Made by a program: the position numbers and the translations under genes
Notes under the pieces: generated by a model
Seen by the model: only the letters and a program-made list of their open reading frames with translations
Told to the model about the DNA's origin: nothing
Databases searched by the model: none
In this document: piece by piece, positions 10,140 to 21,534 of the stretch
How the letters are laid out: the number at the start of each line of letters is the position of its first letter
Numbering within the stretch: position 1 is the stretch's first letter
NCBI GenBank assembly: GCA_045578445.1
Contig: JAZNKG010000040.1
Location: 3,922 to 67,921 of the forward strand
Direction: 5' to 3'
Length of the DNA stretch: 64,000 nt
Origin: Alphaproteobacteria bacterium
GTDB taxonomy: Bacteria; Pseudomonadota; Alphaproteobacteria; RF32; CAG-239

Positions 10140-11177
10140 GTGTTATCTCGGTCTTATAGTGATGAAAAGGCAGAGATATTGTTGATGAGTTTGGATAAAT
10201 ATATAAAAAATAAACGCTCTAAATTCGCATTAATTTTTTTAATGTGTTTGATGTTATTGTCTTTATTTGCTGAGTTTATTGCTAATGACAAGCCAATTAT
10301 ATTAAAATATCAAGGAGAATATTATTTTCCTATTTTTAAGGTATATACAGATGCTAGATTTGGTGGAGATTTTCCAACTGAGGCTAATTATAAAGATGAA
10401 TTTATAAAAGATAATATTAATGAAGATGGTTTTATGATTATGCCGTTAATAGAATTTTCGTATAATACGGTTGACTTTGAGTTAAATGAACCATTTCCAG
10501 CATCTCCATCTTTTAGGCACTGGTTAGGGACTGATGAAGAGGGACGAGATATTGTTGCTCGTCTTTTATATGGTATTAGGCTATCAATGGTATTTGCGGT
10601 ATTGTTAACAGTTCTATCATCTGTTTTAGGAATATTTTTTGGGGCTATTCAAGGGTATTTTGGTGGCAAGTTAGATATTTTAGTGCAACGATTTATTGAG
10701 GTTTGGGAGTCTATGCCTCAGTTATTTGCTCTTATAATTATTGCGAGTGTTTTTAAGCCAACATTTTTTACCTTATTAGTGATTTTATTGTTGTTTTCGT
10801 GGACAGAGCTAACTGGAATGGTGAGAGCTGAATTTTTGAGAGCGAGAAATTTTGAGTATGTTAAAGCAGCCAAAGCTCTTGGTGTTAGTAATTTTAGGAT
10901 TATATGGCGACATATTTTGCCTAATGCGATGGTTGTTATTGTTACATTTGTTCCATTTATTTTAGCAGGTGGAATTGTTGCTTTAACTGCGTTAGATTTT
11001 TTGGGGTTAGGTTTGGGATATGAATATCCTTCGCTTGGAGATTTGGTTCGTCAAGGTAAAGATAATTTGCAAGCTCCTTGGATTGGTCTTAGTATATTTT
11101 TTGTACTTTCAATGTTATTGACTTCTCTGATTTTTATTGGAGAAGGAGTAAGAGATGCTATGGATAAGAGAAGATGA
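10140..11177 (+). CDS. yejE: Peptide/microcin C ABC transporter permease
   Basis: AEFIANDKP, HWLGTD..GRD..ARL.YG.R.S, VRAEFLRARNFEYV.AA.ALG, LGLG....SLG. Confidence 0.88.
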   Translation: MLSRSYSDEKAEILLMSLDKYIKNKRSKFALIFLMCLMLLSLFAEFIANDKPIILKYQGEYYFPIFKVYTDARFGGDFPTEANYKDEFIKDNINEDGFMIMPLIEFSYNTVDFELNEPFPASPSFRHWLGTDEEGRDIVARLLYGIRLSMVFAVLLTVLSSVLGIFFGAIQGYFGGKLDILVQRFIEVWESMPQLFALIIIASVFKPTFFTLLVILLLFSWTELTGMVRAEFLRARNFEYVKAAKALGVSNFRIIWRHILPNAMVVIVTFVPFILAGGIVALTALDFLGLGLGYEYPSLGDLVRQGKDNLQAPWIGLSIFFVLSMLLTSLIFIGEGVRDAMDKRR

Positions 11178-16755: not shown

Positions 16756-16832
16756 GGCGGCGTAGCTCATCAGGATAGAGCAACAGTTTCCTAAACTGTG
16801 GGTAGTGGGTTCGAGTCCCGCCGCTGTCACCA
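16756..16832 (+). tRNA. tRNA-Arg(CCT)
   Basis: Acceptor GGCGGCG/CGCTGTC, anticodon arm ACAGT-TTCCTAA-ACTGT, T-arm GTGGG-TTCGAGT-CCCGC, encoded CCA. Confidence 0.96.
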
Positions 16833-17637: not shown

Positions 17638-19032
17638 ATGGGAAAGATAAGTAGTGATTTTGAGCGTTTTTTATATGCTAACTATCCAGATGATTATATG
17701 AGAGCTACAGCAGAAGATGTACCTGATGATGTAATTACTGCTATTTTGTCGCGTCATAGTTTTCATTATGAAGTGTGGAAAGATATTCCAGAGTGGATAC
17801 GTGCGGAATATAGAGATGATATTCCTGTTGAAGTTTTGAATGGCAATACACGTGTAGAAGATTTTATTTATGATGAGTATGAAAAGTTAACTCCTGAAGG
17901 ACAAGAAAAGGCAAAAGAAGAACAAGAAAAAGAAGAACGTGATGCTATGTTTGTGGCTAATCTTACAGTGGCATTTTTGGCTGCAGGATATACAGCAGAA
18001 GCTGTATCTCATATGGCTGAAAACCATAGAGAACGTAGTAGTATTCTTAAACAAATGGGAATTTATGGTCGTACTCCAGAATTGGTTGCTGCATATCGTG
18101 CCACTAGAGAAAGTGATAAAAAGATTATTGAAGACGAGTATGATGGAAACGAAAAACTTGTTCATAAAAAGGTATTACGTTTAGTTAAGCAATTAAACCG
18201 TATGAAACGTAGTAAAGATGGATATGATGAAGAAAAATATAGAGAAACAGAAGCAAAATTAAAAGAAGTTATGGCTTTTGTAGCATCTAATCCAGAAGCT
18301 CGTAAAAAAATTGAAGAGCATTTAAAAGACCCTGTTGCAAAAAGTGCTTTAAGGCATTTAGTACCAGAAGTAAGTGCTATGTTCGGTTCTTTAATGGGTG
18401 AGGCAGATTTATTACCAGCATTGCAAGAAGCAATGGCAAAGAGTGACAAAACTAAAGGAGCTGGAGTAATAACAACAGCATTGGCATCTTCTAAAGCTCA
18501 AGATGTTGAGGTTATGGCAAAATCGTTTGAACAAACTCCAGAAAAAAGTGTTTTGAGATTTGCTAAAGCATTAAGTCGTATGCAAAAGTCTCAAAATGGG
18601 TATGATGAAAAAGAATATGCAATTTTAGAAGAGAAGTTACAAAATGCGGTGGCTCTATTATCTGGTAATGATGAGCTAAAAAAAGGTATTGTAGATTATT
18701 TGAAACAGCCATCATCTCAAGGCGCTATACGTAATTTGACAGATGATATTAGAAATAAATTTGTGCTATCTCTAAAAGATGTGGGAATTTTGGTTAATCC
18801 TAATGAAGGTGGTCAGAAGAATTATGAAATTAGTCGTGATACTCTAGTTGAAGGATTAAAGAAAGATTTTGCTGAATGTGAAAAAATGGAGAAGATTCTT
18901 GCTAATAAATTGGGACACAAGAATGTTGAATTTATGAAAGCAAGGGTTCAAGATGTTGTTAGCACTATACCTAATGACAAAATTGATAAATTAGTAATGA
19001 TGAGTAGAGGAGAAAATGTTTCTATAACATAA
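17638..19032 (+). CDS. Hypothetical helical protein, orphan paralog 1 (modules A+B+C+C)
   Basis: AGGAG RBS; shares segments with the next two ORFs; internal repeat of about 85 aa. Confidence 0.8.
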   Translation: MGKISSDFERFLYANYPDDYMRATAEDVPDDVITAILSRHSFHYEVWKDIPEWIRAEYRDDIPVEVLNGNTRVEDFIYDEYEKLTPEGQEKAKEEQEKEERDAMFVANLTVAFLAAGYTAEAVSHMAENHRERSSILKQMGIYGRTPELVAAYRATRESDKKIIEDEYDGNEKLVHKKVLRLVKQLNRMKRSKDGYDEEKYRETEAKLKEVMAFVASNPEARKKIEEHLKDPVAKSALRHLVPEVSAMFGSLMGEADLLPALQEAMAKSDKTKGAGVITTALASSKAQDVEVMAKSFEQTPEKSVLRFAKALSRMQKSQNGYDEKEYAILEEKLQNAVALLSGNDELKKGIVDYLKQPSSQGAIRNLTDDIRNKFVLSLKDVGILVNPNEGGQKNYEISRDTLVEGLKKDFAECEKMEKILANKLGHKNVEFMKARVQDVVSTIPNDKIDKLVMMSRGENVSIT

Positions 19033-19049
19033 TCTCCTAGGAGGTTGAT

Positions 19050-19916
19050 ATGATAAGCAAATCGGCTGATTTTGAGCATTTTATGGAGGTGCATTTTCCA
19101 GATGCTTATCGTAGACTTACAGCAGAAAATGTTAAAGATGATGTGTATGTAGCAATATTTTCTGAATATGAAGCCCGTTTTAAGAAGTGGCAGAGTGTTC
19201 CTCAATGGATAAAAGACTTTTATAGAGATGTTCTTCCTCCAGAAGTTCTTAATGGTAACATTACTGTTGATGATTTTGTTGAAAATTTAGAATATGTGTA
19301 TTTGAGAAGTCCGGATAATGATATAGCGAGTATTCGTTCAAATAATTTCAGAAATGTTTTGTATGTTGAAAATATGAAAAAAGAAGAATATGAGGATAAA
19401 ATATCTAGAGGATATAGTCCTAAACATGCAATACAACTAGTTGAAAATAAACACGTTAGAGATTGTTTGTGTGCGGCTTGTTATAATCGTAAAATGACTG
19501 AAGAAGAACGTAAAATGTGGCGAGATTCTAGAAAAAGAGATAGTCATATTATTGAAGAAAGCTTTAGAAAAGACCAACCTGAAAAAATGGCGTATCATAG
19601 CATTAAGCAATATGATATTAATATGCGTAAGATGCGTAAAGAAAAATTAGCTAAGAAAAAAGTAGAGTATTTTCTAAAGGCGATGAAGTGTAAATTTGAA
19701 ATTTTCAAACATTTACCACGAGTTAAAGATAAAAAACTTAGAAGAGGATTGATGCGTATGTACATTGTGTCTCGTGATAATTTGGGTTATAAGAGAATGA
19801 GTGAAGAGCGTAAGAAAATTGCTAAATATGTAGTGGCAAAACCACCTAAAAAGAGAGTTAATAAAAAAGCTATGGCAGATGTAATGGCTCAATTAGGTGT
19901 GAATACTAAAATGTAA
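19050..19916 (+). CDS. Hypothetical basic protein, orphan paralog 2 (modules A+B)
   Basis: AGGAGG RBS; N-terminus aligns with 17638 (DFE.F....PD.Y.R.TAE.V.DDV..AI, P.WI...YRD..P.EVLNGN..V.DF). Confidence 0.8.
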   Translation: MISKSADFEHFMEVHFPDAYRRLTAENVKDDVYVAIFSEYEARFKKWQSVPQWIKDFYRDVLPPEVLNGNITVDDFVENLEYVYLRSPDNDIASIRSNNFRNVLYVENMKKEEYEDKISRGYSPKHAIQLVENKHVRDCLCAACYNRKMTEEERKMWRDSRKRDSHIIEESFRKDQPEKMAYHSIKQYDINMRKMRKEKLAKKKVEYFLKAMKCKFEIFKHLPRVKDKKLRRGLMRMYIVSRDNLGYKRMSEERKKIAKYVVAKPPKKRVNKKAMADVMAQLGVNTKM

Positions 19917-20413
19917 TGGAGGTTGAAATGAGTGACGATATTAATGAAGAAAAAGCTAAATTTGTAACAAAGTGTATTGAAAAGGGGTATTCGGTTACAA
20001 TTGCTGACACATTGTATTATAATTACAATAGAAGAAAAGAAGTTATGGCGGGTGCAAAAGGAAGAGCTTTAACTAAAGAAGAAAAACAAGAAATTGCTAG
20101 AACCCGTAAATCTGATAGAGATGTTATAGAGTATGATTGGAAAGAAAATCAGCCAGAAAAATATGCTGTTTATTATCTTAAACAAGTTAGTAAAATGAAT
20201 AAAAGAATTGATAATGCAAAAAATAAGACAGAAAAGACAGCTTTAGAAAAAGAAAAATTTGATTATATGCAAAAGAATAAGAGCTGGGTTGAAGAAAATA
20301 AAGAGGTGGTAATTGAGGTTATACAACAACTTAATGAGCCGTCAAAACCTAAGAAAAGGTCTTCAAACGATGATAATAAATTTATTAAGTTTTTTAATAA
20401 TCGTGAAAGATAA
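19916..20413 (+). CDS. Hypothetical protein, orphan paralog 3 (module B only)
   Basis: KGYS..A..L....R......T.EE......R.SD...IE......QPEK.A....KQ aligns with the upstream two ORFs. Confidence 0.75.
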   Translation: MEVEMSDDINEEKAKFVTKCIEKGYSVTIADTLYYNYNRRKEVMAGAKGRALTKEEKQEIARTRKSDRDVIEYDWKENQPEKYAVYYLKQVSKMNKRIDNAKNKTEKTALEKEKFDYMQKNKSWVEENKEVVIEVIQQLNEPSKPKKRSSNDDNKFIKFFNNRER

Positions 20414-20414
20414 C

Positions 20415-20442
20415 AAGAAGAGGGGAACATCCCCTCTTTTTT
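20415..20442. terminator. Terminator between convergent genes
   Basis: AAGAGGGG-AACAT-CCCCTCTT with a T tract. Confidence 0.8.
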
Positions 20443-20854
20443 AATAGCTGTAATTATTGCTATATGATTGCTTTCTTCTTAATGATTGTTGTTCGTATTT
20501 TTTTTCGTATGTGTAGTAATAAATTAATTCACGTTCATTTATGCGGTTAGCATCTATAGCAGCTTCTGGTATGCCCCATAATATAGAAATAGGCCAAGTC
20601 AATAGATTAAGTGTACCATATAAATAATGCTCACTTTGTCCACCATTACCGCTAGCTAAGTAAAAATTGCCAAATCCTGGTAATAAATTTAATAAACCGG
20701 CACTTGCAGGGTTTGCTGGTTTTTCCCAATCGCATTGTGGATGGTCTATACTTATGCCTTTTGCTTTTAGTTCACGTAATGTGCGTTGTTCGTGGTGAGT
20801 TAGATGAGTGCAAGCGGTCAAAAAAATGAGAGATAATATAAAAAGTTTTTTCAT
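20441..20854 (-). CDS. Lipoprotein with TM2-domain-like membrane hairpin
   Basis: Lipobox LTAC; AGLLNLLPGFGNFYL...GTLNLLTWPISILWG resembles TM2/NINE domains. Confidence 0.7.
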   Translation of the reverse strand: MKKLFILSLIFLTACTHLTHHEQRTLRELKAKGISIDHPQCDWEKPANPASAGLLNLLPGFGNFYLASGNGGQSEHYLYGTLNLLTWPISILWGIPEAAIDANRINERELIYYYTYEKKYEQQSLRRKQSYSNNYSY

Positions 20855-20982
20855 AGTTCAAACGTCCTAATTTTAGTTAAAATAAAACCCACTGCAAAGA
20901 GAGTGGGCGGATGTTCGAAAACCGTATCCATGTGAACGGCTCGACTTATTTGGCTGAGCCTTATTCGCCGACATCCGTCCAT
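20851..20982 (-). CDS. Possible 43-aa leader ORF (icd/ash-like position) coupled to the lipoprotein gene
   Basis: MDGCRRIRLSQISRAVHMDTVFEHPPTLFAVGFILTKIRTFEL*; its TGA overlaps the lipoprotein ATG (ATGA). Below the ORF-track size cutoff and has no clear SD. Confidence 0.35.
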   Translation of the reverse strand: MDGCRRIRLSQISRAVHMDTVFEHPPTLFAVGFILTKIRTFEL

Positions 20983-21080
20983 AAGACAGTTGTCGGCATA
21001 AATTTATTTAAAGCTATTATGCCATAGCTTACATGGATAAAGGGTTTTCGACGCCCTATCTCGAGTTTTTTGCTCAAGAC
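20880..21080 (-). ncRNA. C4-like antisense RNA with downstream target and attenuator
   Basis: Upstream TCGAAAACC and TATCCATGT are perfectly complementary to downstream GGTTTTCGA and ACATGGATA; several hairpins; terminator overlaps an antiterminator. Confidence 0.7.
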
Positions 21081-21087
21081 ATTGTTT

Positions 21088-21116
21088 ATGATAATGTATA
21101 TGTGATATTTATTCAA
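21088..21116 (-). promoter_or_regulatory. Sigma70 promoter of the C4-like cassette
   Basis: TTGAAT-N17-TATCAT on the minus strand, about 7 nt before the first hairpin. Confidence 0.6.
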
Positions 21117-21129
21117 GGATTTTATTTAA

Positions 21130-21534
21130 TTACATTGCAACACAAGAATTTCCTTTATATTGCCAAGAGGATACGAGGTTATTTTTTATATAAAAGTCTG
21201 TTTTGCAGTAGTCTGTGATAACATCGCCCATAAAACTACCAACGGGAATTATGCTTCCACCATAAGTAAATGGATAAAACATTTCATCTTCGGTTAAAAA
21301 ATCATTATTAAAGCCATATTCTGGGTCTGGTAGAACTTGTTGATTTATACTTATATAGGTTATGATTTCGTTGCCATTGTCTAATTTTTTTACTTGGCTA
21401 GGTTGTCCATATTTTCCAATAAGTTGTTCTGTGGTTTTTCCGATTTCTTGGTTTAATTGGTTAGTATAGTTTTGTGAATTTGCACAGGCACATAGTAATG
21501 CGATGATGAAAAATGATGTAAATTTTTTTAGCAT
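21130..21534 (-). CDS. Lipoprotein (SmpA/OmlA-like)
   Basis: Lipobox LCAC; IGKT..QL...YG.P......NG..I.TY; C-terminal Cys pair. Confidence 0.7.
   Translation of the reverse strand: MLKKFTSFFIIALLCACANSQNYTNQLNQEIGKTTEQLIGKYGQPSQVKKLDNGNEIITYISINQQVLPDPEYGFNNDFLTEDEMFYPFTYGGSIIPVGSFMGDVITDYCKTDFYIKNNLVSSWQYKGNSCVAM

Follow-up and report, generated by a model that had tools for sequence, protein, structure and literature searches.

The 64,000-nt stretch of DNA considered here, referred to as the window, comes from contig JAZNKG010000040.1 of an alphaproteobacterial genome (assembly GCA_045578445.1) and contains on its minus strand two lipoprotein genes, at 21534-21130 and 20854-20441, which are separated by a 275-nt spacer that holds all of the features under study. 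A preliminary description of this spacer, made from the letters of the window, had seen in it a switch resembling that of the phage C4 antisense RNAs. We find that the 5′ leader of the second lipoprotein gene probably carries an antisense RNA module of the c4/sRNA-Xcc1 type, and that the element belongs to a large and so far undescribed family located before surface-protein genes in uncultured gut Alphaproteobacteria.

Read along the minus strand, the leader opens with a promoter-like site (21116-21088) made of TTGAAT (21116-21111), a spacer of 17 nt and TATCAT (21093-21088), with 9 of 12 hexamer matches. The site is present where it had been placed previously, but there are 11 promoter-like sites in the region against 7.4 +/- 3.0 in shuffled sequences, so that it is not significant on its own. 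The hexamer scores of 98 upstream regions from the family are likewise not above those of shuffles, and it is position alone that clusters, with the best promoter-like site ending 20-39 nt upstream of the GGGC box in 63 of the 98. The transcript of the window leader is likely to start near 21080. There follow a 5′ hairpin, P0 (TCTTGAG/CTCGAGA, 21079-21059), which is present in every leader fold computed and whose place is occupied by a variable hairpin in family members, and a small hairpin, AGGG-CGTCGAAAA-CCCT (21057-21041), both found exactly as first described. The small hairpin displays box J1 (TCGAAAACC, 21051-21043) and is followed by box L1 (TATCCATGT, 21039-21031) and by the hairpin Px (AAGCTAT-GGCATA-ATAGCTT, 21030-21011), which is 84.8% paired and has five of six pairs changed on both sides (pairing percentages here and below refer to a MAFFT alignment of 78 full elements). 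The last upstream feature is the 5′ strand of a helix known here as Palt (GCCGACA plus the linker CTGTCT, 20997-20984), which in minimum-free-energy folds pairs with 20980-20967 and thus competes with the core fold; the Palt helix (GCCGAC:GTCGGY) is 89.6% paired.

The core itself is a c4-like three-stem RNA at 20980-20905, which scores 33.8 bits with the sRNA-Xcc1 model and 99.7 bits with R1, our own covariance model built on three copies of the element. It is made up of a 9-bp outer stem (20980-20972 with 20913-20905), hairpin 1 (20971-20941), hairpin 2 (20940-20921), whose loop carries box L′ (ACATGGATA, 20933-20925), and a junction, J′ (GGTTTTCGA(AC), 20923-20914). An 11-bp stem proposed earlier for 20981-20971 and 20914-20904 does exist, with one A.C mismatch that leaves 10 of 11 pairs. 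The two perfect 9-nt complements reported for this leader are exact: J1 is complementary to GGTTTTCGA of the core junction (20923-20915) and L1 to ACATGGATA in the loop of hairpin 2. The core is followed by an intrinsic terminator (GCCCACTC...AGTGGGT plus TTTTATTTT, 20908-20879), with a stem that is 91% paired; the CCCACT-N8-AGTGGG hairpin named previously was recovered by an independent terminator scan, which called 20908-20887 with seven pairs, four of them G-C, a loop of 8 nt and then TTTATTTTAA, and which found three terminator-like sites in the scanned region against 0.8 +/- 0.9 in shuffles. Box J2 (GGACGTTTGAA, 20867-20857) lies over the Shine–Dalgarno (SD) region of the gene and is complementary at 10 of 11 positions to TTCGAACATCC (20919-20909), that is, to the junction together with the 3′ strand of the outer stem. 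This target at the ribosome-binding site had been overlooked in the preliminary description. The output gene (20854-20441) encodes a lipoprotein of 137 aa (MKKLFILSLIFLTAC...) that belongs to no known family.

Six copies of the element are present in the 1.7-Mb genome when the results of BLAST, nhmmer, R1 and RF02221 searches are combined. In addition to the window element, which was the starting finding, single copies are found on contigs 4, 16 and 54 and two on contig 11; four of the six are hits of R1, while the second copy on contig 11 and that on contig 54 are not and were contributed by Rfam and nhmmer. All six share a common plan, in which a 5′ hairpin is followed by a GGG/CCC hairpin with J1, by L1, Px and an AU-rich linker, by GCCGAC and a linker complementary to what follows, and then by a core of ~85 nt with its outer stem, hairpin 1, hairpin 2 and a junction of 6-7 nt. 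Every copy ends in an SD region and a start codon, which a separate terminator hairpin precedes in five of the six; in the contig 16 copy a T-run right after the outer stem stands in its place. The three diverged copies have quite different sequences and, by eye, have retained the box pairings.

Beyond this genome, the R1 core is present in 35 of 61 related genomes (the genome of the window included) at 1-7 copies each; within the genus 30 of the 35 genomes searched carry it, and it was also located in three other families of the class. A degenerate pattern for the hairpin-1 region retrieved at least 120 stretches from one-per-species genomes, nearly all of which are, by their titles, metagenome-assembled genomes of uncultured gut Alphaproteobacteria; the same pattern retrieved no stretch from IMG/VR viral contigs, and a plasmid collection gave no match of the element. 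A single match came from a phage collection, the fecal record MT836653.1 (L166) named 'UNVERIFIED: Bacteriophage sp.', where the element at 576-760 precedes a gene for an 890-aa autotransporter. Phage structural domains are absent from this record, which encodes in addition DUF3768, a resolvase and a large serine recombinase and is more likely to be a fragment of a bacterium or a mobile island than of a phage. Tandem copies ~350 nt apart were seen at three loci, L039 (1150-1234 and 1501-1585), L070 (2160-2244 and 2511-2595) and L115; those of L039 have near-identical loop boxes, and the first copy in L039 and in L070 has no open reading frame (ORF) behind it. Our literature search found no description of such a family; its coverage did not extend to the supplement of Weinberg et al. 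2010, which possibly details the c4-a1b1 motif.

The pairings were examined in 116 model hits, 34 from a first set of loci and 82 from 80 loci of the at least 120 stretches. Loci were selected without using the boxes, and the pairing tests are therefore not circular. For L1:L′, 105 of the 116 hits could be parsed, the other 11 having been dropped for a missing anchor motif or too short an upstream flank, and these yielded 85 unique L′/L1 combinations, among which 75 versions of the loop occur. The mean duplex energy is -11.2 kcal/mol for cognate and -3.5 kcal/mol for non-cognate pairs; a value of -8 kcal/mol or below is reached in 81 of the 85 cognate combinations as against 2.9% of non-cognate pairs, and the cognate L1 partner is best or tied in 64 of the 85. 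Contigs from three sequencing runs hold strain variants with two double changes that preserve pairing in the 9-bp L helix: 21033 A>G is accompanied by 20931 T>C, and 21035 G>T by 20929 C>A. For J1:J′ the proportion of paired cells is 98.7%, and at three positions of this helix both partners differ in 18-21 sequences. The complementarity noted in the window is thus conserved in homologues for both pairs of boxes; a lack of such conservation had been named in the preliminary description as grounds for refutation. In the MAFFT alignment L1:L′ appears just 54.6% paired, as the program misaligns the variable L boxes, and for this reason the alignment-free duplex test was relied on. The core helices, with 96.3% of cells paired, are almost invariant and hardly vary at all within the close family, whose data therefore speak neither for nor against them.

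These results bear on the idea that the element is a dispersed repeat or a mobile promoter-leader cassette with no regulatory role, its palindromes being a by-product of spread. Such an origin would sit well with the many copies before unrelated genes, with the tandem arrangements in L039 and L070, with the copy beside resolvase and recombinase genes and with apparent recombinants, since L028 combines an upstream half of the L037 type with another core loop (as compared to L037 and L038), which suggests recombination between copies. The copies are, however, always in a single orientation and uniformly spaced from the start codon that follows, four separate helices have been preserved by compensatory changes, and neither terminal inverted repeats nor target duplications were seen in the copies compared, which makes a mere repeat very improbable in our view.

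The relation of the core to the gene behind it was assessed through J2. In the window the J2 duplex has an energy of -11.1 kcal/mol, compared to -5.6 +/- 2.1 kcal/mol for 792 other SD-bearing start regions of the same genome, of which 2.5% equal it; for two paralogues tested in the same way the fractions are 1.0% and 0.13%. Across the family, J2 duplexes of -10 kcal/mol or below are found in 75 of 96 members, and 80.6% of cells are paired, a figure that falls to 36-45% if the partner columns are shifted. J2 also varies in step with the class of the J box through double changes, GGATGTTC occurring with GAACATCC and GGATGC with GCATCC. The position of the element is equally regular, with a T-tract no more than 60 nt from the core in 114 of 116 members and a start codon 30-59 nt past the core in 91 of the 101 loci with a called ORF. 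At three loci (L025, L028 and L037) the usual SD site is replaced, and a cytoplasmic protein of 453 aa with no known family starts ~83 nt past the core; its own SD is not complementary to the RNA (-4.7 kcal/mol).

An independent small RNA (sRNA) gene with its own terminator, acting on other mRNAs, for which the place before the lipoprotein gene would be incidental or that of a promoter donor, is another way of reading this arrangement. The terminator stands directly behind the core, lone short contigs cover the leader only, and sRNA-Xcc1 is described as a trans-acting RNA in the title of Chen et al. 2011. A candidate target is also available near 10998 on the minus strand of contig 8, where a site is complementary to loop plus junction at -23.8 kcal/mol with three G.U pairs. 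That site is internal to a 139-codon open frame, ~120 nt from its beginning, and its complementarity is probably due to chance, while the best partner of loop plus junction genome-wide, with the element's own opposite strand excluded, is provided by its own upstream boxes (-24.4 kcal/mol). The conserved spacing to the start codon and an SD complementarity above background speak against independence as well, and we consider it improbable.

Folding of the leader RNA (21085-20850, 236 nt) gives -85 kcal/mol (z = -7.67), and none of 200 shuffles was as good. A closed fold at -83.4 kcal/mol has J1 and L1 on the core, Palt and the terminator formed and the SD unpaired in the read-through RNA, whereas a c4-like fold, obtained when the outer stem is forced, has -58.3 kcal/mol. 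When J1 and L1 are made unavailable, the SD of the read-through RNA becomes paired with J′ and the outer 3′ strand; with the two boxes unblocked the SD is free. Formation of the stem had been thought to exclude the terminator, and the two do overlap, but by only 4 nt (20907-20904), and a shortened outer stem and the terminator fold together in one predicted structure, so that the exclusion is partial. Predictions for single cores give the three-stem fold in the window and, among the three diverged paralogues, in the contig 54 copy and the second copy on contig 11; in the contig 16 copy the outer stem is kept and the interior folds differently.

Two such folds are also what a purely cis-acting, two-state leader would show, an attenuator of riboswitch-like character in which a protein, a ligand or a physical signal switches between closed and open forms and no RNA acts in trans. 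In its open fold the outer stem would be formed and the base of the terminator weakened, and in its closed fold J1 and L1 would be on the core with Palt and the full terminator in place. We regard a cis-only attenuator as a serious rival to an antisense RNA, if on balance an unlikely one. The distances given above leave no room for a promoter of the gene's own behind the terminator, so that expression must pass the terminator; mutually exclusive helices have been kept, Palt and the terminator among them, with the 4-nt overlap of the latter and the outer stem; and the internal loop of hairpin 1 (GAATAAG/AATAAG) is invariant in the 78 sequences, as a binding site could be. On the other hand, the loop box exists in 75 versions, each tracked by its partner, which is typical of an address and not of a ligand pocket, and the nearest families (sRNA-Xcc1, isrK and C4) are antisense RNAs, while no riboswitch family matches the window in the Rfam scans. 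A ligand would have to bridge a large gap of 25 kcal/mol between the folds, unless the fold is chosen while the RNA is being transcribed, and the ability of a shortened outer stem to coexist with the terminator also speaks against a switch.

An antisense RNA of the c4/sRNA-Xcc1 type is also suggested by comparison with known RNA families. At gathering thresholds the Rfam scan of the window returned tmRNA and tRNA only, with no riboswitch family. The best row of a permissive scan of 20300-21300 was sRNA-Xcc1 (RF02221), with 33.8 bits and an E of 7e-4 at 20980-20897. This is the best Rfam family for all copies, which share its three-stem consensus and score 18-41 bits with it (33.8, 31.2 and 29.3 for three paralogues, 41.4 and 18.1 for two diverged ones); isrK reached 18.2 bits. 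As the downstream core is the sole Rfam-like part, the antisense RNA is not formed by the upstream hairpins.

The closest layout is that of the P1/P7 C4 system (RF01695). The P1 record lists, in order, promoters, a1 (TTGACAG), b1 (GTTAGTGC), the C4 RNA, a2, b2 over the ribosome-binding site and icd, with the upstream a1/b1-type boxes annotated only as 'putative'. The window element has the same succession of a promoter-like site, two upstream boxes, a three-stem RNA and a site over the ribosome-binding site of the next gene. The pairing topology is also the same, in that the junction behind hairpin 2 is bound by the 5′ box and the loop of that hairpin by the 3′ box. Since the a-complement lies in the P1 junction and the b-complement in its hairpin-2 loop, J corresponds to the 'a' and L to the 'b' of P1. 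Both RNAs start with GG, and the distances are similar, with 3 nt between the upstream boxes (7 nt in P1) and 50 nt from the second box to the RNA (66 nt in P1). The outer stem, in contrast, has 9 bp instead of ~17 bp. Unlike P1 c4, the present element has a long hairpin 1 with a conserved internal loop and an intrinsic terminator between RNA and gene; of the a2/b2 pair it has kept downstream a junction-type site alone, which covers the SD, the loop-type site being absent; and its output consists of bacterial surface-protein genes rather than the phage genes icd/ant.

The preliminary description was thus right about a phage-C4-like layout but had the roles of RNA and target reversed. It took the antisense RNA to be 21080-21031, with its targets in the downstream stem and a leader peptide of 43 codons coupling translation. 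The complementarities do exist, and so does the ORF, which in translation of the window sequence runs from 20982 to 20851 and ends in an ATGA overlap with the lipoprotein start, but this frame is open in just 11 of 76 members, with differing starts and frames. The structured, conserved and Rfam-like part is the downstream core, 20980-20905, and the upstream boxes of P1 are target-type sites and not the RNA, so we consider that earlier assignment highly doubtful.

For sRNA-Xcc1, PMC2996969 describes an 88-nt RNA detected by Northern blot and end mapping. RF02221 is above its cut-off in 24 of 151 sampled Pseudomonadota genomes, and 14 bona fide loci (at least 53 bits; L169-L182) were inspected. 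As in the present family, a J box in an upstream GGGG/CCCC hairpin is followed by an L box, and the RNA is multi-copy in some genomes, as seen in the RF02221 scan and reported in PMC12189769. In seven of the 14 loci, by eye, J2 contains the SD and an L2 box lies directly before the ATG, whereas no L2 is found here; conversely, a T-tract within 50 nt was seen in one of the 14, compared to 114 of 116 (within 60 nt) in the present family. P1-like boxes on both sides of true sRNA-Xcc1 go unmentioned in those parts of the literature on that family that were consulted.

The Group 1 C4-like sRNAs of Acinetobacter baumannii are a further parallel, described in PMC5320573 as multi-copy chromosomal RNAs that vary in one loop and start at GGW. 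They share with the present family a conserved sequence except for one specificity loop and a place on longer transcripts with a conserved upstream region, and the core here begins GGA or GGG, in keeping with the GGW sites of that paper. According to the same source, 5′ trimming has been shown for c4 and proposed for the Acinetobacter RNAs; maturation by RNase P, at the 5′ end of the outer stem, is a trait of the C4 RNA. The Acinetobacter RNAs match the Rfam C4 motif, which the copies in the genome of the window do not; they belong to gammaproteobacteria and not to alphaproteobacteria; and the paper reports no fixed downstream gene class, terminator-plus-SD arrangement or upstream complement. 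The c4-a1b1 motif, compared here by name alone, would by its name and taxa (gamma-proteobacteria and phages, as tabulated in PMC2864571, with no Rfam accession) be c4 with upstream a1/b1 boxes, and no family of that name matched in the Rfam scans of the window and paralogues. From these sequence comparisons, the present family appears to be a diverged c4/sRNA-Xcc1 branch that gained a terminator, lost L2 and extended J2 into the outer stem.

The genes behind the element mostly encode surface proteins. By a simple rule 80 of 101 family products look secreted, and 50 of those have a lipobox. Pfam was run on 76 of 86 unique products, ten incomplete or near-duplicate ones being omitted, and identified 11 PEGA lipoproteins, five outer membrane protein (OMP) beta-barrels, five autotransporters, three HTH proteins, three APH-type kinases, two FtsH and one protein with Cthe_2159 alone, together with one each of DUF2846, TM2, YpsA, GT29, tail-collar, ankyrin, LRR and integrase; two further products gave weak single rows below curated cut-offs (CarboxypepD_reg and Lcl_C), and 36 had no family. 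The FtsH and integrase genes begin more than 100 nt from the core. The 137-aa lipoprotein of the window and two orthologues have no Pfam family at E <= 10, and the lipoprotein no NCBIfam or PADLOC match; in the Atlas it is surrounded by clusters that bear the automatic name 'Lipoprotein family protein' and share no Pfam family. Its earlier designation as TM2-like finds no support in these searches or in a BLASTP comparison with the true TM2 protein of L027 (E = 22), and a role as an exclusion or abortive-infection protein finds no counterpart among the defence families of PADLOC.

The absence of phage genes around the locus, remarked on previously, was borne out from ~7 to 36 kb of the window, that is, within ~13 kb of the element, where the neighbours are housekeeping genes (SspB, ABC transport, LuxS, RodA, PBP2, MreBCD, MiaA, Ddl and L17). 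The upstream lipoprotein gene (21534-21130) has no PADLOC, NCBIfam or Pfam match. Between the output gene and the genes converging on it, a G+C-rich hairpin (AAGAGGGGATGTTCCCCTCTT) at 20415-20438, present on both strands and terminator-like on the minus strand, accounts for the weak matches to sraA and SraG in the permissive search of Rfam. The opposing genes are three consecutive plus-strand frames at 17638-20413 (464, 288 and 165 aa) that share the N-terminal motif ..DFE.F....P.DY.R.TAE.V.DDV... and, from their sequences, look like a small paralogous family of unknown function; they have no Pfam or NCBIfam match, and the 464-aa protein has one weak PADLOC row (E 0.0014). Elsewhere in the window a two-piece (permuted) alphaproteobacterial tmRNA (7718-7371, minus strand, 212.9 bits) adjoins the SspB gene, and a tRNA is found at 16756-16829.

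Taken with the anatomy, the conserved and covarying pairings, the family and its gene context, all of which are observed directly, the c4/sRNA-Xcc1 analogy allows a mechanism to be proposed, in which we infer the processing of the RNA, its action in trans and the sign of regulation. Transcription would begin near 21080, and the nascent leader would first display J1 and L1. As the ~85-nt core emerges, L′ would pair with L1 and J′ with J1, and most transcripts would probably end at the intrinsic terminator behind the core to give an RNA of ~200 nt, which, if it behaves like P1 c4 and the C4-like sRNAs of Acinetobacter, may be trimmed at the GG that opens the outer stem. Transcripts that read through would carry the gene, with J2 over its SD complementary to J′ and the 3′ strand of the outer stem. 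J′ is complementary to both J1 and the SD region, so that the same junction can serve either: held by J1, it would leave the SD free; placed on the SD, it would block translation. A free processed core could then use its locus-specific L box to bind a newly made transcript at J1 and L1 and release the cis junction to close the SD, or could pair with J2 directly, and either route would result in locus-specific negative autoregulation of the surface protein. Two contigs cover the leader, a lone 199-nt contig spanning 21094-20896 (from run X1, which we guess to be an RNA run) and a 258-nt metatranscriptome contig spanning 21075-20822.

Several points weigh against this interpretation and account for our placing it at probable and no higher. 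The RNA data consist of these two contigs, which show no RNA ends and whose depth and gaps in cover say nothing about expression, and the processing site, the RNA ends and the effect on expression are predictions from the sequence of the leader. No Rfam family reaches its gathering score, the cut-off of sRNA-Xcc1 being 53 bits, and C4 itself is not matched: RF01695 (gathering score 45 bits), which gives P1 c4 68.8 bits, has no hit at E <= 10 either genome-wide or in 20300-21300. Support for the core helices comes only from three diverged paralogues and likeness to the model. In the full leader the closed fold is favoured over the c4-like one by 25 kcal/mol, and the c4-like fold is not the minimum-free-energy structure even with J1 and L1 blocked. 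The L1/L′ boxes are mismatched in L021, L025 and L028, which are among the four weak combinations and look like recombinants, and in a 6 x 6 test within the own genome the cognate L1/L′ pair is best in only four of six rows. Finally, there is no downstream loop site, the loop pairing with its own start region at -4.31 kcal/mol and with those of other loci at -4.13 kcal/mol, and the P1 mechanism is for this reason not simply transferable.

Antisense RNAs of the c4 type have been described in phage immunity and in a small number of bacterial sRNA families, for which few targets are known. In the present family the complete module has a fixed place before identifiable genes, those of lipoproteins (some with PEGA domains), of OmpA-like barrels and of autotransporters, in many uncultured gut Alphaproteobacteria. 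With its partner sites legible in the sequence itself, the function of a1/b1-type boxes becomes directly testable by compensatory mutants. The family also offers dozens of natural and mutually distinct RNA–RNA address pairs. A more far-reaching idea, which we put forward tentatively and think unlikely, is that of an addressing system made of RNA only, in which each surface-protein gene has a private hypervariable loop and box and a cell with up to seven leaders turns each lipoprotein, porin or autotransporter gene on or off independently. If so, the boxes would be under diversifying selection against cross-talk, and self-recognition between the processed RNA of a leader and newly made transcripts would do at the RNA level what phase variation does for the cell surface in gut Alphaproteobacteria. 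More generally, the element points to post-transcriptional control of the cell surface in these poorly known gut bacteria.

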